Source: Escherichia coli (GTDB lineage: Bacteria > Pseudomonadota > Gammaproteobacteria > Enterobacterales > Enterobacteriaceae). Taken from it: a DNA stretch of 64,000 nt. A program made the translations under genes and the position numbers. Of this stretch, positions 11,872-23,385 are shown piece after piece. The stretch lies in NCBI RefSeq assembly GCF_003991155.1, contig NZ_CP031293.1; one strand, 5' to 3'. The notes under the pieces are model-generated. The model ran no database searches, had not been told where the DNA came from, and was given only the letters and a program-made list of their open reading frames with translations. Each line of letters begins with the position of its first letter. The first letter of the stretch is position 1.

Positions 11872-13044
11872 TCAGGCCTTATGGTGGAAATAATCACTCA
11901 GCCGGGAAAACATGCTGCCTTCCCCGACAGATTCCAGGGTAACCAGCGGCCAGTGCGCCACCTGTTTATCACGGTCGTAAAGTTCAATTTCCCCTACCCG
12001 CTGATGGGCGCTAATTGGCGCGGTGAGTTCTTTACCATCAAGGGTATATTTGGCTTTGATATGTGGAATTTCGGCTTTCGGTAGCACCATCCAGAACTCT
12101 TGTTCCGTTCCCAGGGCGATATTTTCTTTATCGCCATACCAGATGCGTTCCGTACCAACCTTTTTCCCACGGTGCAAAATTTGCACCGTAGTAAAGTTTT
12201 GTTGCCCCCAACGCAGTAATTTTCTTGCCTCTTCCTCACGACCTTTTGCGCTGTCAGCCCCCATTACCACTGCAATGAGACGACGCTGCCCATCTACAGC
12301 CGAAGCAATGAGATTAAACCCGGCACCAGAAGTATGACCCGTTTTCAGGCCGTCAACATTCATGGTTTTATCCCACAATAACCCGTTACGGTTTTGCTGG
12401 GTGATACCGTTCCAGGTGAGGCTTTTCTCACTGTACATATGATAAAACTCGGGCTCGCCGTGGATGATAGCGCGAGAAAGCACAGCTAAATCATAAGCCG
12501 AGCTATGCTGGCCAGGTGCATCCAGACCATGCACTGTTTCAAAATGCGTATCCTTGAGATGCAGCTTCTCGGCATAGTTGTTCATCATTTCAACAAACTG
12601 CCGTTGCCCACCGGCAATATAGTCAGCCAGAGCAACACAAGCGTCATTTCCGGAATCCACAATTAAACCACGGCTTAAATCACGTACCGATACGCGATCG
12701 CCCTCTTTCAGAAACATCAGTGAAGAACCGACAAACACCGGATTATCTTTCGCCCACGCATCGCGCCCCACGGTGACAATATCGTCTGGCGTAATGCGAT
12801 GACTATCGATAGCACGATCCACGACATAGCCCGTCATCAGCTTTGTCAGGCTGGCGGGATTGCGCTGTTGATGCTCATTACCCGCGGTGAGAATCTGACC
12901 GGTGGTGTAATCCATCAATACCCAGGACCCGGCATGAATCTCTGGAGGCTGAGGTGAAAAAGGAATGTTTTCCGCCGCAAAACCAGACGATAAATTAAAA
13001 ACGAACAAAGAAGCAGCAATAATAAGACGGCGTTTCAACAGCAA
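11872..13044 (-). CDS. dacD: D-alanyl-D-alanine carboxypeptidase DacD (PBP6b)
   Basis: 390 aa with signal peptide and SLTK/SGN motifs. Confidence 0.9.
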   Translation of the reverse strand: MLLKRRLIIAASLFVFNLSSGFAAENIPFSPQPPEIHAGSWVLMDYTTGQILTAGNEHQQRNPASLTKLMTGYVVDRAIDSHRITPDDIVTVGRDAWAKDNPVFVGSSLMFLKEGDRVSVRDLSRGLIVDSGNDACVALADYIAGGQRQFVEMMNNYAEKLHLKDTHFETVHGLDAPGQHSSAYDLAVLSRAIIHGEPEFYHMYSEKSLTWNGITQQNRNGLLWDKTMNVDGLKTGHTSGAGFNLIASAVDGQRRLIAVVMGADSAKGREEEARKLLRWGQQNFTTVQILHRGKKVGTERIWYGDKENIALGTEQEFWMVLPKAEIPHIKAKYTLDGKELTAPISAHQRVGEIELYDRDKQVAHWPLVTLESVGEGSMFSRLSDYFHHKA

Positions 13045-13814: not shown

Positions 13815-16292
13815 CTACATTGCCATTAATATAAACATAGCCAATTCGTCATAACGAATTCCGTAGCGTCCACCTGCTTTTTTTACAAGAATCATATTTC
13901 CTGTTTTATATTGAGAATAAATTTTCTCACCTGTATCAGGATCTGTGCTCTCTTCAGTTATCACCTCTTCATCCCATACGTCTGGCCATTCATCGTAACA
14001 CCAAAAAGCATATTGCTCAGGATTTAAACCATGCTTTCTAAGAATATCTCCTACGGTTTGAGCGCCAACTCCAAAATGATACCTTGATAACTCCAATCCT
14101 TTAAAATTAATCGACTCATTAAACCTGAACTTGCATATAATTCCCTTTATTTCCAGCGCAGCATCACGCTCTGCCTGAGTAATGTCATATATTGTTTTAA
14201 GTGTTTCATCTGATGTGCTTATAGTCCCGGATGCAGAATAAATCTGAGCCCATCTAAATGATGGTGCACCAAGAGATTTGCTGTTATCAATAATTGGTGA
14301 AAAATTACCTTTAATGGCAATATTTCCAGAGTCGCCGAATATATTAATAACTGTAGAGTCATCACCATGGTTTTTTACGCTTAAGTTTCTTGATAAAATA
14401 TTTATATCTTTGTTATACCCACTAACATTAATCCATCTTTTACCATCAATGTGATACCCGTAAATATTTCCGTTTGATTGTTCGTCAGGTGACTCTCTAA
14501 GAACAATAGCATCTACTCCAGACGACCATTGTATTTTTGTATCTGTAGGCCTCCAGTTCTTTATAATGAACGAACCATCAGTAAACTCCGTTTTTATTTG
14601 TCTATTGTCTACAAATGCGTCTCTTGGTTTAAACTCACTTGTGTTAACGCTGCTCTGAAGATCAGAAGCAAAAAATCTAAGATTTCCTGTATAACCCTGA
14701 GTCTCGGTCAGGTTATACGCAATCATAATTCCATTTTCAAACTCAGATGATGTTATTTTAACATCACGGCAATCACCAAAAATGCAATTTCCTTTATCAA
14801 ATGTTGTTTGAGCTTTGAATTTATCAAACCTTAAATTACGAACAGGGAAACCATCAACCTCTAATGCAAAGGATGCATGAAGGCCAAAGTATTCTGATGG
14901 CTTACCTGATGTATGATCAAGAGTAGTGGCTACTGTATTCTCAAAAACAGTCCCGCTAAAATTATTACCAATTGACGGAAACCTGATTACACTTATTGTA
15001 CCTTGTATTTCAGGAGAAATACCAGATAGTGTGATGTTAGTTCCATCAAATGATGCATCTGAATACGTATATACTGATTCACTGCCAGCAATTTTAAACT
15101 GTTTAACTGAAGTTATTCTCATCGACTTTTTATGTTTAAATGTCACTGAGCTTTCAGTATTACTTACAAGATCAATCTGAGGGCTATTCCTTATCGCGAT
15201 TCCTGACTGGACATAAACGTTATTAAAGTGCGTTTTTTCAGGATTTCCCTTCATTGAAAGGCTCCCGTCATTTTCTGTCAGTAGTAGTCCTTTTACCCTC
15301 CAATAGCCGACAATCTGTACGTTATCAATAACTGAATCACAGCTATCGTATACATGCAACCCTATATCCCAGTTATCACCCAATGAATAAGAATCAGGGT
15401 TATTGTATCCTTCAATACCATTTTTACTTACCATTATTCTCAGATTGCGTAACTGTGATGCCCTGTTGATACTAACAGCTACGCTCATGGCTTTTGGTGT
15501 AGCAGGAGTAACACCTACAGAATCTTCATTCGTAAACTCAGTGAACTTACAAGATATCCCTTCAACAATTTTAACCGGTCTTTCATTAGAGATGTTAAAA
15601 AAATATTTGTTTTTTTCTCCATCACCAGTAAATACAAGATGGGTTCCTTTACTCCAACTTTTTAATAATCTTTCAGGCGCTGGTCTATATGTATCCCAAT
15701 AATCAATGCCAGATCCAACCAGTGAACACCCCTCAGGAATGTTAATATTCTTCTTGATGATGCATATTCCTTCCGGAATTGTTATAACCGACCTTCCAGA
15801 GTTTAAAGCTTTAATAAAAGCATCTGAATCATCTGTTTCCCCATCTATTTTTGCTCCCCACCCTCTAACATCTCCACAATCTCTCCATCGTGCCATCTGC
15901 AACTCAGGATATTTTTTAGCGCCATCTGGATCTTCTAATTGCTGCCGTAGCTGATCGGGGTCATACTTCAGCACATTAGGAAAATAGAACTGCTGCGCAC
16001 CATATGCATCATAAACAGCCATAGAATGGCCTTGCACAGTTACAAACTTGGCTATTTGCCCGTTATATACCGGGTAACCAGCAGCGTTAATGATGATTGG
16101 TTGCGAAACAGGAACGTGAGAGCCATCTTCGTTCTCCACATAAACCTGAATCTGGTTTTCAGGATTTACAGGGTCAGTGTCAATTTTACCGATATAAATT
16201 TTGCCATTGGCAACCGCTTTAAAAGAACGTGCCATAGTGAAGAGTTGAGAAGGCATACTCACTACAACATTGGCATTTATCGAATCTGTCAT
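13815..16292 (-). CDS. Tailspike: P22 gp9-like head-binding N-domain, divergent receptor-binding domain, C-terminal intramolecular-chaperone-like domain
   Basis: 825 aa; N-terminus resembles P22 tailspike; SDETLK motif about 150 aa from C-terminus. Confidence 0.85.
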
Positions 16293-17646: not shown

Positions 17647-17898
17647 ATGTCTGATCGTAAGTACAAAAACCCTCAAGTGAATCTGAGGCTTCCTGTAGAG
17701 ATAAAGGAACGTCTTATTGAGCTGGCTGAGGCTAATTCTCGTTCATTAAATGCTGAGATGGTAGCAGCACTTGAGGCATGGACTGAAAAAAATAAACATA
17801 TTCAAGCACTAGATATTGCAACTATAGCATCGCGGTTGATAGAGCTTGAGCATGAGGTTGAGAAGTTAAAATGTATGCATGGCAACGGTGAAAAATGA
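17647..17898 (+). CDS. mnt: Mnt-like ribbon-helix-helix maintenance repressor
   Basis: 83 aa, NLRLPVEIKERLIELAEANSRSLNAEMVAALEAW; divergent from arc-ant. Confidence 0.7.
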   Translation: MSDRKYKNPQVNLRLPVEIKERLIELAEANSRSLNAEMVAALEAWTEKNKHIQALDIATIASRLIELEHEVEKLKCMHGNGEK

Positions 17899-18209
17899 AA
17901 CGCATCGCTATTTTGTTAATATTGTTCTTCTCTACAATAGTTTGCGCCAAACAAAAATCAGATAATGGCGATCTTAAAGGCCTGCAAGAACTCATGATAA
18001 CTTCGAAATTTGCTGGCATGTGCGGCACAATCAAACAAATGGCAACATTTCAAGAATCAACAAAAATGCCTGGCGGAGATGAGTTCTTACAGCGTTTTCT
18101 GACCACAGAGCAAGCAAGACTTGGAATGAATCCACAGGAGTTTCTTGAAGCATGCCAGAAGTCAATTTCAGCTTATACCAATTATTACAATCTAACTTCT
18201 GATAAATAA
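17895..18209 (+). CDS. Small exported protein of unknown function, translationally coupled to mnt
   Basis: 104 aa; ATGA overlap with mnt stop; signal peptide MKRIAILLILFFSTIVCA. Confidence 0.5.
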   Translation: MKRIAILLILFFSTIVCAKQKSDNGDLKGLQELMITSKFAGMCGTIKQMATFQESTKMPGGDEFLQRFLTTEQARLGMNPQEFLEACQKSISAYTNYYNLTSDK

Positions 18210-18234: not shown

Positions 18235-18720
18235 ATGAAAAAATCACTATTAATTATCCCGCTTCTGCTGGCTGGATGCGCAAAAGTAAGTGACTACCAA
18301 GCAAGTTGCGAACAACGCTATCCAAAGCTTAGTGATATGGCTAATTGCCTTGATGCCAGCGTGAAGAACGACTCACGCATGGCATCAGCACCAACACCTA
18401 AGCTGTATGTCCTTGCTGCGAAGATGCTCGGGCAAGGTGTCGATGAAGGCAAGATAAGTGACGCACAGGCAAGACTTGAGCTTCAGAATCTTTATGTTCA
18501 ATTACAAAGCCAAGAACAAGCCCAACAAATAGCGCAAAGCCAAGCATTCCAGCAGGCTTTATTGAATTATCAGGCTGTAAACACAATGCAAGCGATCGAG
18601 CAAAAAGCGCGCCAGCCTGTTATAACTCAACCTTACCCAACACGCGTTGACACATATACAAACTGCAATTCAGGATTTGGAAACACCGTCACATGCAACA
18701 GTAGCAGCAACATTAGATAA
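18235..18720 (+). CDS. Lipoprotein of unknown function (lipobox LLAGC), Gln-rich C-terminal half
   Basis: 161 aa; MKKSLLIIPLLLAGC signal and lipobox; downstream of mnt in same orientation. Confidence 0.5.
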   Translation: MKKSLLIIPLLLAGCAKVSDYQASCEQRYPKLSDMANCLDASVKNDSRMASAPTPKLYVLAAKMLGQGVDEGKISDAQARLELQNLYVQLQSQEQAQQIAQSQAFQQALLNYQAVNTMQAIEQKARQPVITQPYPTRVDTYTNCNSGFGNTVTCNSSSNIR

Positions 18721-18722
18721 AG

Positions 18723-20885
18723 CTATTCATATTCATTCATACCGCTTAACGAGGCGACAATACCAGCTCTCGACAAGCGATTGAATTCATCGCTACCAAT
18801 AGCATCGCGTATTGCTTTTACGGCGGCTTTATTTGCCATAAATCTGCGTTCCGCCGCCGCTAATGCTTCTTTACTTCCGCCAGCTCTTACTGCTTTCGTG
18901 GCTTCCTGAACTGCTTTCTCTATCGCATATCGGCCGCTACGCGTGGTGGCAATTTTAGATACAGCACCTTTTAACCCGGCGCCAACTAAAGCACCTGCGG
19001 CAGCGCCTGCAATGCCCCCTCCTGCTCCACCAACAATGGCACCTGATGTTGAGTTGGCAATTGCATTTAACACTGTTGATGTGACGTTGGATAAACCGGC
19101 ATCCAGATCGCGTAGTACATTGGCAGTTCTCCCTGTTCTTTCAATATACTGCTGAGGCTTCACTGCTGCTCTTGCAAGAGTGCCATATGCATCAGCAATT
19201 CTTCCGAGTTCTGAGGAATATCTGCTAATGGCTTTTACATTTTGTGGGGTAAGTATCCCTGCGATATGGTTAATTCCTGCTGCATCAGCTTTGCCACCAC
19301 GTACACCATGCGAGATAGCATCTTGCAACATTGATGATATAGCAGGAACACGCTCTGATTCTGGCAGCGCGCGGATCATAGAATGGAACCCAGCAGGACC
19401 ATTAAGACCTTTAGCTGACGATGATTGAAGGGATTTTACTCCATTCGTAATCAGTGCATCTGTTGCCAAATCACGCCCGAAAACAGACTCTGCACTCTCT
19501 TGTGCTGATAACCTCGCTTTAGACAGATCATTAGCTTTCTGCCAGTCATCAAGAAATCCGCCGTTTTCCGCCATTGTGCGCATATCATCAGTAATTGCCC
19601 GGCGTATTTCCCCTGCTCTCCTTGCCGCATTTGCCTCTCCGCTACGCTTATATTTTTGCTCCGCATCAGCAAATTTCGCTCTCCATGCTTTCATGCCATC
19701 AAATGTTACCCCACCTTGATTGTTTGCCTGAACAAACTGTTTCATTTCAGGAGTAAGCGGTATGCCAGCAGATCGCTCTGCCTGAATAACGGCATTACCA
19801 TTTAGCATTCTTGCTTTTTGATTTGGCATTGTTGACCGCACGTCATCCCATGCCGCGCGCTCGGCATCCTTCATCTGATCAAGATTTTGAAGAATCCTTT
19901 GTTTTATAGCCGCACTTTTTTCTGATGCCGTTCCAGATGCGGCCCCAAATTCATCAAGGTTTCGACTTAACTTTGATGATATTTCGTTAAATGCTGCCTG
20001 ATGGGCGTCCTGAACAATTCCTGGTGTTGATGCCAATGCGCCTTCGGCTTGTGCAATTCCACGACTTCCAGATCGCATTCCTGGTGTTAATGCGTTTATA
20101 TCAATTCCAGCAGACTCAGCCGCTTTTGCTACATCTTCGGACACATTAGCGGCCTGACTGGCAATTGACTGACGCCCAGCACCTGACTTTGCCATCCTGG
20201 AAACATCATTAGCAGAATTCAGTGCTGCACCACCAAGAGCCTGTGAAACCCTTGGCGCAATAACGCGCCCGACACCTGAAAGAACGCCTTGAGCACCAAT
20301 ATTGATACCACCGTTAATGGCAGCATTTTGTGCAAAGTCGCCCTCCTGATTTGCAGCATCAGCAAGAGAACCTGCAATCATGTTTCCTGCGGAACCGATA
20401 TCTCCAGCGAGCTTTGCTGGCGCTCCAGCAGCTTTTGCCGCTGTGCCAATTGGCAGGAGATACCCACCAATTGTTTCACCGGCTTGCGCATAAGGGTCTG
20501 TCGGTCGATCGACTGGACGATAGACATCATCCAAAACCTTTGGGCCACCAAGCCCCTGGCTGATTGCATTAATCAGACTTGCGCCACCCTGCAATACGTC
20601 AAATGGTATGTTTACCAGACCACGACCAGCCTGTTCTGCAATTTGCCCTGCACTTTGACCACCTGTGAGCCAATCACCAGCTTGTTGCATCAATGATGGT
20701 TCTTCTTTCTGCTGCTGTGGCGGAGGGTATGCTGCATAAAACTGATCTCTTGCTTCAGCCCATTTGTCACCAGCCTTAGGGGCAACAACCTCATCAAAAT
20801 ATTGCGCTTGAGCCTGTGCTTTCTGTTCTTCAGTTAACGCCTGATACTGTGGAGAAGCGATAACATCTTTCCATGCTTTAGCCAT
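18723..20885 (-). CDS. Ejection/DNA-transfer protein (P22 gp16-like), enlarged
   Basis: 720 aa, Ala/Gly-rich; last gene of ejection-protein block. Confidence 0.7.
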
Positions 20886-22225
20886 TAATCACCCCATAAA
20901 GACGAGAAACCGGAATTATTGCTGTCGCTTCCTGATTTTCGCTCACTAACATATGTGTCATAACCTGATGAACTATATCCCATTGATTCAGCCTCCCTTG
21001 CTGCAACCTTTTGAAATACAGAATATTGCGATCGGATTTCAGATAACTGTTTTCTGACGACCTCTTCAGGCTGTGTTATATCGAGTTTCGCGATCAGGTT
21101 TTCCAGTTTTTGGCCTTCAGCATTGGAGAGGCTACCCATACCTCGCATAGTCTGCACGTTCTGGACAAACGCACCCGACTTTAATTCTTCTATCGCATTA
21201 CGGTTTGCAAGCCCTTCAGCACTTGTGAAGCCATCTATATTTCTTCCTTCGAAGCGACCGATACCTTCAAGCTCCTTCTTACCAAGCAAAGAATCAATTT
21301 TCTCTATCCCTCGCTCACCAGTAATCAACGCATTGTTGTAATTATTGTTGCCATCAAGCCATCTCTTAGCCTGAGACATTCTGGCTGACGTTGCAGCTTT
21401 ACCGGTTAGAGGATCAATTCCCGTCGCTGCTATCTGTGAGTTAAGAGACAAAACATCCATATCCTGAAGTTGTCCTGCTCTTTCAAGGGCCGCCTGTGAC
21501 TGCTTAAACACATACTTGTCGTGATTCAGTCTTGCCATTTGAGCCTTATAGGAAAGATCCTGCCCCCTAATAGCCCTCGCATTCGTCATGTCATTATTGC
21601 GAATGGTTTCGTTAATTCTTTGCTGTTCCTGCTGGCGACCAACCATCTTGTCCTGAACATTGAAGTAATCAATCGGACCAAGAGCAGCCATTCCGAGGTG
21701 ATCAACAAACTCACCAAATCCTGAAGGATTCTGCTGATACATCTGAGCAACGTTGTTAGGGTCAACGCCGACGCGCGCCAGTTCCTTGGCGTTGTTTTGC
21801 AGCCATGATTGCATTGCTTCTGGAGACGAGGCCGCAAGGCGTGCGCCAGCTGCTAAGGTGCCGATAGAATTACGCTGCTCTTCATCAATGAATCCCATGC
21901 CTTTACGAACGGATTCAATCTGGTCTGGATATTGAGTAGCCAACTGACGCAAAGCACCGCGATCACCAGACGCATAAGCATTAGCGTATGCCTGCTGAAA
22001 TTCTTTCTGCCGCTGAGCCTGCTTTTCCTGCTGAAACACCCCCGCAATACCTGAAAGTCCTTGCAAAGCAGTCAGCCCAACATTGTTAGCGCCTGAACGC
22101 TCAATATCATTGTTCTGCCTGATAAGCTGAAGCGTATTGCCGATGTCATTTACGCTCGGAGCGTTTGAGTTGACGCCGCCGATACCAGCCAACAATCCGC
22201 CATTTGATCCTTGCCAAGTAGCCAT
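20885..22225 (-). CDS. Ejection protein (P22 gp20-like)
   Basis: 446 aa; gene order and overlap with flanking genes. Confidence 0.65.
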
Positions 22226-22234
22226 GATTACCCC

Positions 22235-22927
22235 TTAAAACAACGAACCAAGCAATCCGATACCAGCACCAATGCCAGCGCCCCAAGGTGTTGATGTTCC
22301 CAAAAGGCTGGCAAGACCTGCACCGGCAATCGCACCGGACGTTCCGCCGCTAATTGCTGTCTGAAGACTTGATGGTTTATTGGCATTAGCAGCGGCAAGT
22401 GCTGCGCTTTGCTGTGCAATGCTGCTCATGTTGTTGGCGTACGTCTGCCCGGCGTTTGCCTGACCTTGCAGAGCACCAAGCCCAACGTTTGCCAGATTGT
22501 TGTAATTGCTCATCTGGTTTGATAACCAAGACTGACCGAGAGTCGGCGCGATCGTAGCCAGTTGATTGCTTGTGGCTGTCGAACCAAGTCCGCCAGTCGC
22601 CTCCGCAGCAGCAAGACTCTGGTAACGAGCCTGACCTGCAAGGTCTTTATACTGCTGAGAATTGTAATACTGATTAAGTGCCTTCCCCTGACCTTCTAAA
22701 CTGGAAAGATTCTGAAGCTGGTTAACATACTGCTCCGCAAGCGGCGTGAACGGAGCAAGGTTTTTCATGATCGTCTGCCACTGCTGATTTTGCAGGTCTG
22801 CGGCATACTTCTGGGCTTCTGCTGCATACTTTGCGCTTTTATCAGAACTGCCACCTTTCCCGCCTTTTTCAGGGCAATAAGGTTCCTCGCCGCGCAGTTT
22901 TCTGCCCAGCTTAAATGCATATAACAT
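22235..22927 (-). CDS. Ejection protein (P22 gp7-like)
   Basis: 230 aa, Gly/Ala-rich C-terminus; gene order. Confidence 0.6.
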   Translation of the reverse strand: MLYAFKLGRKLRGEEPYCPEKGGKGGSSDKSAKYAAEAQKYAADLQNQQWQTIMKNLAPFTPLAEQYVNQLQNLSSLEGQGKALNQYYNSQQYKDLAGQARYQSLAAAEATGGLGSTATSNQLATIAPTLGQSWLSNQMSNYNNLANVGLGALQGQANAGQTYANNMSSIAQQSAALAAANANKPSSLQTAISGGTSGAIAGAGLASLLGTSTPWGAGIGAGIGLLGSLF

Positions 22928-22929
22928 GG

Positions 22930-23385
22930 CTATCTCCCGTGATTCAGGAAGTCGATTAGTTCTTCGCGTGTGGCGCTGTAAAACGTCACGTCATCCACGC
23001 CTTTGAAGTATTTCTTGATGGTTCCTACACGCTTAAGGCCAATCATTGCGCAGTACATCTGACCGTGGCGGAATTTGCGCGCAGCGAACGATGTGACACA
23101 CTGAACAGTGGTGTTAGTCAGAATGTATCGCCAGAACGCCAGCCCGATTTCCTTGCTGAAGCCGCGAACCTCTGGCAGGTACATGGCGTGGCAATCGAAT
23201 GTCAGCGGCTGAATCTCCTGATAGTAAACAATGCCGCCGAACTGCCCGTGCACGTTAACTTCAAAGTAACGGCAATCAGGTTTGTAGCCGTATTCATCAC
23301 CGTTATTGCTCCCGGCGATAATGTCAGGGTGATTTCCGACTGCTTCTATCAGGTCGATGTTTCGCGTTGGTTTGAATGTAATCAT
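22930..23385 (-). CDS. Virion protein (P22 gp14-like)
   Basis: 151 aa; gene order. Confidence 0.6.
   Translation of the reverse strand: MITFKPTRNIDLIEAVGNHPDIIAGSNNGDEYGYKPDCRYFEVNVHGQFGGIVYYQEIQPLTFDCHAMYLPEVRGFSKEIGLAFWRYILTNTTVQCVTSFAARKFRHGQMYCAMIGLKRVGTIKKYFKGVDDVTFYSATREELIDFLNHGR

Follow-up and report, generated by a model that had tools for sequence, protein, structure and literature searches.

The window analysed here, a stretch of 64,000 nucleotides from an Escherichia coli contig, carries on its minus strand a set of virion genes in the P22-like order gp14-gp7-gp20-gp16. The gene 14 homologue (22930..23385, 151 aa), a head assembly protein preceding the ejection genes, was recognised by PF11039 (E 1.3e-52) and PHROG 651, and the two ejection proteins encoded next to it, the gene 7 homologue (22235..22927, 230 aa) and the gene 20 homologue (20885..22225, 446 aa), by PF25688 P22_gp7 (E 2.8e-134) and PF16928 Inj_translocase (E 1.2e-68), respectively. 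The cluster ends with an open reading frame at 18723..20885, uninterrupted in the open reading frame listing of the window and encoding 720 aa, of which the start ATG shares one base with the gp20 stop codon (TAATG). In the order 14-7-20-16 it has the place of the third and last ejection gene, which in this family is expected ahead of an immI/sieA region and the tailspike, and it is followed here by two Arc/Mnt-like genes (Mnt/Arc-type repressors), ant, and then the tailspike gene; the same gene order is also seen in P22, HK620, epsilon34, Sf6, and CUS-3. The gp7 protein of the window is 99% identical to Sf6 gp11, and gp20 is a mosaic on alignment, its N-terminal half being Sf6-like and its C-terminal half HK620/CUS-3-like. 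In translation, the C-terminus of gp7 is Gly-rich and hydrophobic. The convergent gene downstream of gp16 was considered as a SieA type, and rejected for its lack of similarity to P22 SieA and of any PADLOC match. A lipoprotein gene is located at 18235-18720.

The 720-aa protein was identified as a member of the P22-like gp16 ejection/DNA transfer family by sequence homology. Its residues 18-678 match PHROG 770 ("DNA transfer protein") with E 1.5e-230, and profile comparison by hhalign with the alignment of P22/Sf6-type gp16 gave a probability of 100% (E 2.4e-77, 612 columns), while BLASTP similarity to P22 gp16 was significant only at residues 64-218 (P22 residues 53-191; 70% identity, E 1e-63). 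Scans with local copies of Pfam and NCBIfam gave no match for this protein, and the family was recognised only through PHROG 770 and through PF26808, which is attached to all close homologues in the precomputed annotation of the database. The sequence-only reading, by which the last ejection protein was gp16-like and the prophage P22-like, is right, as indicated by the PHROG 770 match together with synteny. Secondary PHROG matches to "lytic tail fiber protein" and "transglycosylase" were rejected as annotations inherited via the conserved module at residues 64-246, and not indicative of an enzymatic domain. No SLT/lytic transglycosylase domain was found in the protein by Pfam scan; by contrast, this body is combined with PF01464 SLT in some variants from E. 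coli prophages (E 2.8e-25 in an 875-aa variant, P0078).

With respect to length, the 720 aa are borne out by the uninterrupted reading frame, and the 609 aa given for P22 gp16 in the sequence-only reading are also correct. The protein had been described as enlarged on the basis of this difference, with related phages of the same length named as the finding that would make it unremarkable. Such phages exist, and the claim of enlargement is refuted by them: gp16 is 719 aa in CUS-3 (98% identity), 718 aa in Louie (99%), 708 aa in epsilon34 (91%), and 722 aa in HK620 (77%). The protein thus has both the identity from about residue 60 onward and the length class (about 703-722 aa) of the CUS-3/epsilon34/HK620 sequence type. 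Among the 120 best database clusters, 114 have lengths of 702-722 aa, one 719-aa cluster alone holding 1871 members, and among 57 full-length relatives, one taken per 50%-identity cluster, the median is 736 aa and the range 567-1487. P22 gp16 stands at the low extreme of the family length; in a published table giving 719 aa for CUS-3 and 722 aa for HK620, the 609 aa of P22 are marked as the smallest (PMC8954989). The protein is already known, an identical 720-aa sequence being present in NCBI, and 80% or more of the gene was found in at least 110 of the 5426 complete E. coli genomes. No observation spoke against the identification. It is very probable, therefore, that the reading frame is a standard, intact P22-like gp16 of the CUS-3/epsilon34/HK620 type in an E. 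coli prophage, of normal length at 720 aa, and as a routine part of a common P22-like prophage it matters little as it stands.

A near-identical gene is found in a clearly truncated prophage of E. coli LR-31, as would be the case if the gene were a decaying remnant of a defective prophage making no working ejection protein. This is hardly to be credited here and was rejected, since the reading frame is complete, starting where those of the plaque-forming phages Louie (99.6%) and CUS-3 (98.9%) start and ending at almost the same point, the neighbouring virion genes within the window are all intact, and the protein is distinguished from CUS-3 gp16 by only 11 substitutions, the majority of them conservative and the majority within the final 25 residues.

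The enrichment of Ala and Gly relative to P22 gp16, as noticed from the sequence, was confirmed both overall (29.6% against 23.8%) and in the C-terminal third (31% against 19%). When Ala/Gly-rich stretches were defined as 30-aa windows with at least 50% Ala+Gly, a single one was found in the C-terminal third (window starts 602-626, core 615-635), and a second in the N-terminal third at about residues 140-182; the extended Ala/Gly-rich segments described for the C-terminal third are thus one segment in that place, and the plural does not hold. Together with the excess of 111 aa over P22 gp16, this composition would fit an unusually enlarged gp16 that had gained Ala/Gly-rich inserts in its C-terminal part. 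In an alignment of six phages, however, the extra length over P22 is scattered in nine blocks of 6-30 residues each, P22 gp16 has six blocks of its own, and only the extra blocks 146-161, 629-634, and 669-681, making up about 35 of roughly 145 extra residues, are Ala/Gly-rich. Just one Ala-rich insertion is clear against P22; it is a 16-residue BLASTP gap at residues 146-161 (20403..20450, minus strand; 62% Ala+Gly), lies in the N-terminal third, and is found in HK620, epsilon34, and Louie as well. The proposed alignment with gp16 relatives thus gave nine extra blocks, few of them Ala/Gly-rich; since BLASTP similarity to P22 is limited to residues 64-218, their placement in the other 500 residues is unreliable. 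With the extra 111 residues dispersed over at least nine indels, mostly not Ala/Gly-rich, and with the same length in all close relatives, near the family median, acquisition of such inserts is very improbable, and the description of these residues as inserts is not upheld. Identity to P22 gp16 is about 28% outside residues 64-218 (28-31% overall), and the length gap to P22 is that of a highly divergent allelic type, not of a low-complexity insertion. Most of gp16, from about residue 220 on, has very probably been replaced by a highly diverged homologous allele, and the small N-terminal module exchanged as well.

The modular organisation of the protein was followed by alignment and by an AlphaFold2 model. 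Residues 1-60 (20706..20885, minus strand) form an N-terminal exchangeable module predicted as a single long helix (pLDDT 87-95, helix 19-52), which is common to HK620, Sf6, CUS-3, and Louie, is replaced by a module beginning MKVTANGKTF in P22 and epsilon34, and is found together with FSSLWGD as the C-terminal tail of gp20; other E. coli prophages have an SLT domain in its stead or a module about 100 aa longer. The following Gly/Ala/Pro-rich module, residues 64-218 (20232..20696), was delimited by BLASTP as conserved across P22-like gp16 types and is 97-100% identical to HK620; as a monomer it takes no confident fold in the model (pLDDT 25-38 over residues 58-219). Residues 220-580 (19146..20228) are modelled as an all-helical body with pLDDT mostly 80-95. 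The block most variable against HK620 gp16 lies at residues 575-626 (19008..19163), where identity per 40-aa window falls to 38-40% against 78% overall, and is followed, with overlap, by the glycine-zipper core of the Ala/Gly-rich hydrophobic segment at residues 615-635 (18981..19043), recognised by Gly periodicity, conservation, and hydropathy. The C-terminal helices, residues 636-720 (18726..18980; pLDDT 70-88), include a short 15-residue motif common to P22 and Sf6, residues 638-674 aligning with P22 residues 570-606 (BLASTP E 0.031), and a C-terminal tail of about 45 residues that is absent from both of these phages. For 30% of the modelled protein pLDDT stays under 50. The structure prediction that had been suggested as a check thus yielded a confident helical body, and low confidence for the Ala/Gly-rich residues 609-635. 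A Foldseek search with the model against PDB gave no significant match (best E 0.22), the top hits being generic helical repeats and designed proteins, and no solved structure was found for any member of the gp16 family by PDB sequence search and Foldseek. The PDB sequence search gave only weak hits, with fusion-core constructs of coronavirus spike S2 (E 0.0023) over residues 549-626, and these were rejected as compositional, because the heptad-like helix and Gly-rich stretch align to artificial GGSGG linkers.

The single Ala/Gly-rich stretch of the C-terminal third contains six Gly residues at period 4 (615, 619, 623, 627, 631, and 635), which are invariant in relatives of 51-95% identity; a run of at least six Gly at this period was obtained in 22 of 20,000 composition-preserving shuffles. 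The stretch is a conserved motif of the GxxxG glycine-zipper type and not an insertion, and, since its glycines are invariant down to 51% identity, it is taken as a putative membrane-inserting helix. The only Kyte-Doolittle peak of the protein at or above 1.2 is located at residue 616 (1.63), within this motif, and the hydrophobic maximum stays at 80-92% of the length in many distant relatives; what speaks against the zipper as membrane anchor is that in P22 and Sf6 gp16 no hydrophobic peak of this kind is seen there. From this pattern we infer that the segment could serve both in helix packing, helix against helix within a gp16 oligomer, and, coming from the periplasm, in insertion into the cytoplasmic membrane. 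The segment has the lowest Hessa-type insertion energy in gp16, yet the value is +3.6 kcal/mol (a position-independent sum), and because of this sum it is not considered a classical transmembrane helix. A positive insertion energy would also suit a merely flexible low-complexity linker between helical domains, with gp7 or some other segment of gp16 making the membrane contact, and so would the pLDDT below 50 over residues 609-635 and the presence in gp7 of a Gly-rich hydrophobic C-terminus of its own. Perez et al. (2009), as cited in PMC10883804, reported that P22 gp16 still associates with membranes in vitro without its C-terminal 134 residues (476-609), which speaks against the zipper as membrane anchor and likewise favours a linker. 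A linker, however, would not preserve six invariant Gly in strict period-4 spacing with the positions in between free to vary, as they are in HK620 and in three further relatives (P0121, P0122, and P0123); moreover, these positions are filled almost entirely by hydrophobic or small residues, the stretch holds the only hydropathy peak of the protein, and distant relatives retain the hydrophobic maximum at the same relative position. A linker is accordingly regarded as rather unlikely, and the zipper as a concrete candidate for the membrane-inserting element in a family without a solved structure. A literature search pairing "glycine zipper" with "ejection protein" found nothing.

For P22 gp16, packaging in the virion, release before DNA, and the requirement for DNA delivery have been shown experimentally, and the protein is membrane-associated and placed at the inner membrane (PMC10461980). 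The CUS-3 genes 7, 20, and 16 can replace those of P22, the proteins entering the virions and the hybrid titres being normal (PMC10883804). By homology with the P22 and CUS-3 proteins of these experiments, the 720-aa gp16 would be packaged in the virion, leave through the tail after adsorption and ahead of the DNA, and act at the inner-membrane end of a gp7-gp20-gp16 conduit that brings DNA into the cytoplasm.

Length variation of the ejection protein had been connected with a different envelope or with evasion of exclusion systems. SieA does act on ejection proteins, and those of HK620 are the only ones to escape it, in part, with a plating efficiency of about 10% (PMC10883804). Evasion is, however, contradicted for the closest tested relative, because SieA types A and B fully exclude both CUS-3, whose plating on a sieA+ host is under 1e-8, and the P22 hybrid with CUS-3 ejection proteins, which falls from 1e11 to less than 1e4 when the host has SieA of either type (PMC10883804). 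As the 720-aa protein is 98% identical to the SieA-sensitive CUS-3 gp16, and only 38-40% identical to HK620 gp16 in the block to which the P22 escape sites align, escape from SieA, taken as plating at 0.1 or better on sieA+ hosts, is by homology not expected. Adaptation to one particular envelope is argued against by the range of phages with this gp16 type, which have as hosts E. coli K1 (CUS-3), Salmonella Anatum (epsilon34), and Sodalis (phiSG1).

The P22 gp16 substitutions G532W and P546S confer escape from SieA, and these sites align, by two alignment methods, to residues 585-595 and 611-624 of the 720-aa protein. In comparison of the GenBank records of CUS-3 and HK620 gp16, identity is 49% over residues 571-640 and 38% over 575-614, against 78% overall. 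The overall identity of these two proteins is given as 26% in print, where the SieA-sensitive CUS-3 ejection proteins are contrasted with the partly resistant ones of HK620. Outside this block the two sets differ at 101 positions within gp16 residues 221-570, at 24 in gp7, and at 8 in gp20. Since the P22 escape sites align there, CUS-3/HK620 divergence is highest there, and the only hydrophobic peak is found there, it is tentatively proposed that residues from about 575 to 640, that is the variable flank together with the six-Gly zipper, might enter the inner membrane and be recognised by SieA. CUS-3 and HK620 gp16 differ most densely at the place to which the P22 escape mutations align, and for work on podovirus DNA delivery, to which the conserved zipper may also be of use, this turns the question of what part of gp16 SieA sees into one of segment swapping; a single swap should suffice for mapping the determinant because the two proteins are 78%, and not 26%, identical.

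Among known systems, gp16 of T7 (1318 aa), with an N-terminal lytic transglycosylase, is a functional analogue, being also the largest and the last of three ejection proteins, and is proposed to span the inner membrane and has predicted C-terminal transmembrane helices (PMC8954989). The 720-aa protein, about half its size, has no detectable similarity to it in sequence or fold and no transglycosylase domain, and falls outside the T7 gp16-like class with its N-terminal SLT/lysozyme-like peptidoglycan hydrolase. P22 gp16 (609 aa), the experimental prototype, and Sf6 gp13 (665 aa) are homologous to it over the whole length by profile comparison, at about 28-31% identity overall, although 111 and 55 residues shorter; they share with it the gene order and the presumed inner-membrane conduit role, P22 gp16 is 70% identical at residues 64-218 but differs in the N-terminal module, and in neither protein does the matching region hold a glycine zipper or a strongly hydrophobic segment. 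HK620 gp16 (722 aa; 77% identity) has the same architecture with the six-Gly zipper in register, but is only 38-40% identical over residues 575-626, and the HK620 ejection proteins escape SieA at about 10%, in contrast to none for the CUS-3 type, in which the window protein is included by sequence (PMC10883804). The phages CUS-3, Louie, Huey, Dewey, and epsilon34 share with the window protein the length class (708-720 aa), the gene position, and the glycine zipper. Of these, epsilon34 gp13, Huey, and Dewey are 98-99% identical from residue 60 onward and differ in carrying the alternative, P22-like N-terminal module, whereas Louie and CUS-3 gp16 ("putative DNA transfer protein" of an E. coli K1 phage, ABQ88390.1) are 98-99% identical over the full length. 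From CUS-3 the window differs by the 11 substitutions, by the C-terminus MNEYE in place of MAQE, and in the partner proteins, gp20 being 74% and gp7 85% identical to those of CUS-3.

The uninterrupted open reading frame of 720 aa at 18723-20885 (-) encodes a gp16-like last ejection protein, as the sequence-only reading had correctly recognized: residues 18-678 matched PHROG 770 ("DNA transfer protein") with an E value of 1.5e-230, and the gene order is that of P22-like phages. Upstream on the same strand are located the homologues of gene 14 (PF11039), gene 7 (22235-22927 (-); PF25688 P22_gp7, E 2.8e-134), and gene 20 (20885-22225 (-); PF16928 Inj_translocase, E 1.2e-68), and downstream come two repressor genes of the Arc/Mnt type, the gene for an antirepressor, and one for a tailspike with the P22 head-binding domain. 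This order, 14-7-20-16 plus the downstream genes, indicates that the window carries the late-operon end of a P22-like prophage, with the reading frame at the position of gene 16 in P22, HK620, epsilon34, Sf6, and CUS-3. The ATG of gp16 overlaps the upstream gene's stop codon by one base (TAATG), and its own stop is located 2 bases from that of a convergent plus-strand gene. Just past the tailspike end of the prophage is the chromosomal dacD gene (11872-13044 (-); NF008489, E 4.9e-256). CUS-3, Sf6, and P22 integrate at tRNA genes (argW, thrW); since no tRNA gene was detected by ARAGORN in the 64-kb window and dacD adjoins the prophage, the integration site is neither argW nor thrW. The tailspike gene (13815-16292 (-), 825 aa) stands out by its markedly low G+C content, 37% where the remainder of the prophage has about 50%, suggesting a receptor-binding module of recent acquisition. 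Its product combines the P22 head-binding domain with a domain resembling pectate lyase and, C-terminally, a weak match to the Peptidase_S74 intramolecular chaperone.

The protein had been described as enlarged, but its length is shared by related phages, the very observation that the sequence-only reading had named as refuting the point. By annotated length and global identity to the window protein, the gp16 proteins are those of Louie (718 aa, 99%), CUS-3 (719 aa, 98%), epsilon34 (708 aa, 91%), HK620 (722 aa, 77%), P22 (609 aa, 31%), and Sf6 (665 aa, 27%). Among the best 120 clusters from a collection of 5.8 billion proteins, 114 are 702-722 aa in length, five are 822-876 aa, and one is 653 aa; one cluster of 719 aa includes 1871 member sequences. 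An exhaustive HMMER search of 50%-identity representatives gave 57 full-length relatives (at least 550 aa), with a median of 736 aa and a range of 567-1487 aa, only seven being 609 aa or shorter. A 2022 review gives 719 aa for CUS-3 gp16 and 722 aa for HK620 gp16, and calls the 609-aa P22 protein the smallest of its class (PMC8954989). The apparent enlargement is an artefact of comparison with P22, the smallest family member. NCBI already has the exact 720-aa sequence under the name "DNA transfer protein [Escherichia coli]", and at megablast sensitivity at least 80% of the gene is covered in 110 of 5426 complete E. coli genomes, at least its conserved part being found in 1059 of them; it is an ordinary gene, already known. 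Genuinely enlarged variants were observed in other E. coli prophages, represented by the database relatives P0036 (823 aa), P0078 (875 aa), P0088 (876 aa), and P0122 (885 aa); some join the gp16 body to an N-terminal SLT lytic transglycosylase (PF01464, E 2.8e-25), an activity that P22-like gp16 is stated to lack (PMC8954989), and one carries an insertion of about 100 residues behind the N-terminal helix.

By BLASTP, significant similarity to P22 gp16 was confined to residues 64-218 (70% identity, E 1e-63), within which is one real insertion, 16 Ala-rich residues at 146-161 in the N-terminal third; the other approximately 500 residues had no similarity to P22 gp16 recognizable by pairwise search. 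Homology of the two types along their whole length was nevertheless shown by profile-profile comparison (probability 100%, E 2.4e-77, 28% identity over 612 columns). In the multiple alignment of gp16 proteins, the proposed inserts are for the most part not insertions: the excess over P22 is dispersed over nine blocks of 6-30 residues, of which only three small ones, about 35 residues altogether, are Ala/Gly-rich, and P22 has six specific blocks of its own. The first 60 residues make up a distinct, exchangeable module, MAKAWKD... in the window protein, CUS-3, HK620, Sf6, and Louie, and MKVTANGKTF... in P22 and epsilon34. The former is paired with a gp20 C-terminal tail FSSLWGD and the latter with YTSKSGIxFTVE in all six phages compared (window prophage, Louie, epsilon34, HK620, Sf6, and P22); because the two sequences adjoin on the DNA, this co-occurrence may reflect linkage and not function. 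Dispersed indels, end-to-end homology, and the exchangeable module together indicate that the size difference stems from mosaic replacement by a diverged allele, which fits a published account that counts genes 16 and 20 among the most variable and mosaic virion genes in P22-like phages (PMC10461980). The neighbouring gp20 (20885-22225) is itself an intragenic mosaic: it differs little from Sf6 gp12 in its first approximately 200 residues, and little or not at all from HK620/CUS-3 gp20 in the remainder. For gp7 (22235-22927), identity to the Sf6 protein is 99%. The C-terminus of the window gp16 reads MNEYE against MNE in Louie, and the sequence at 18723-18745 (-), ATGAATGAATATGAATAG, looks like a 6-nt tandem duplication immediately before the stop codon.

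The C-terminal third is indeed richer in Ala+Gly than that of P22 (31% versus 19%; 29.6% versus 23.8% overall), but in one segment instead of the several proposed: windows of 30 aa reaching 50% Ala+Gly or more begin at residues 602-626, which is where the protein has its sole Kyte-Doolittle maximum above 1.2 (1.63 at residue 616). Its core at residues 615-635 contains six glycines with an exact period of 4, a run of such length being found in 22 of 20000 composition-preserving shuffles. All six are unchanged across an alignment with HK620, epsilon34, and three relatives from the database (identity as low as 51%), and it is the intervening residues that vary; in many more distant relatives, too, the hydrophobic maximum is at 80-92% of the length. 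The stretch is a conserved, functional-looking motif and no insert. GxxxG glycine zippers occur both in membrane channels and in the Gly/Ala-rich fusion peptides of enveloped viruses. By this analogy, we infer that the zipper would form a tightly packing helix within a gp16 oligomer and insert into the inner membrane. Three observations call for caution: a position-independent Hessa-type sum of +3.6 kcal/mol, by which the segment is not a classical transmembrane helix; low AlphaFold2 confidence over residues 609-635; and the P22 C-terminal 134 residues, reported, as cited in PMC10883804, to be dispensable for membrane association in vitro.

The other reason raised for the length, evasion of exclusion, is not supported, and experiments on the closest relative tested contradict it. 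Mutations for escape from SieA, an exclusion protein acting on ejection proteins, are located in the C-terminal regions of gp16 (G532W, P546S) and gp20 (Leavitt et al., PMC10883804). In the same study, wild-type CUS-3 plated at <1e-8 on a sieA+ host and a P22 hybrid with CUS-3 genes 7, 20, and 16 decreased from 1e11 to <1e4 on hosts with type A and type B SieA, whereas wild-type HK620 plated at about 0.3 and the hybrid with HK620 genes 7, 20, and 16 escaped at approximately 10%. As the window protein is of CUS-3 type (98% identity), the best available evidence predicts that it is SieA-sensitive. No sieA homologue was detected in the prophage by similarity to SieA or by PADLOC. At the position of P22 sieA are two small plus-strand genes, 17895-18209 and 18235-18720, convergent with gp16. 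One encodes 104 aa with an N-terminus resembling a signal peptide, the other 161 aa with a lipobox (LLAGC); the matching PHROGs, 19844 and 6067, are of unknown function, and neither product had a Pfam or PADLOC match or resembled SieA. The gene for 161 aa also follows the same gp16 in a prophage remnant of E. coli LR-31, is present in phages Gally, vB_EcoP-720R6, and VSe13, and has a homologue in a Proteus phage (55% identity, "putative lipoprotein"); its product is a candidate for a prophage-expressed envelope or exclusion function.

In that mBio 2024 paper, the contrast of CUS-3 with HK620 is put down to gp16 being "only 26% identical" (PMC10883804), whereas 560 of 719 residues (78%) were identical between the GenBank sequences CP000711 and AF335538 (our loci L006:5001-7160 for CUS-3 and L001:4001-6169 for HK620); the values for gp7 (90%) and gp20 (98%) both agree with the paper. 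The 159 differences are unevenly spread, identity being 97% over residues 1-220, 71% over 221-570, 49% over 571-640, and 81% over 641-719, with a minimum of 38% over 575-614. MAFFT aligns P22 sites G532 and P546 with window residues 595 and 611, hhalign with approximately 585-587 and 624; both placements are inside the 571-640 block, at or just before the zipper. Coincidence of the escape sites with the most divergent block, next to the zipper, is proposed as a hypothesis because the alignments there are at low identity. The 78% identity narrows the possible location of the determinant for partial SieA escape by HK620.

An AlphaFold2 model built on a 28-sequence alignment (mean pLDDT 69.7, pTM 0.49) has confident helices over residues 1-55, 220-580, and 636-715, and residues 58-219 and the zipper region are without a stable fold. 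No solved relative was detected by sequence or fold search, in agreement with the statement that gp16 is without high-resolution study (PMC10461980). Residues 64-218 (20232-20696 (-)) are the best-conserved gp16 segment across P22-like types (70% identity to P22 and 97-100% to HK620), and their pLDDT in the monomer model is 25-38. This segment may be ordered only in the oligomer or against gp20, in a manner that can be likened to the "molecular tape" of T7 gp16-N (PMC8954989).
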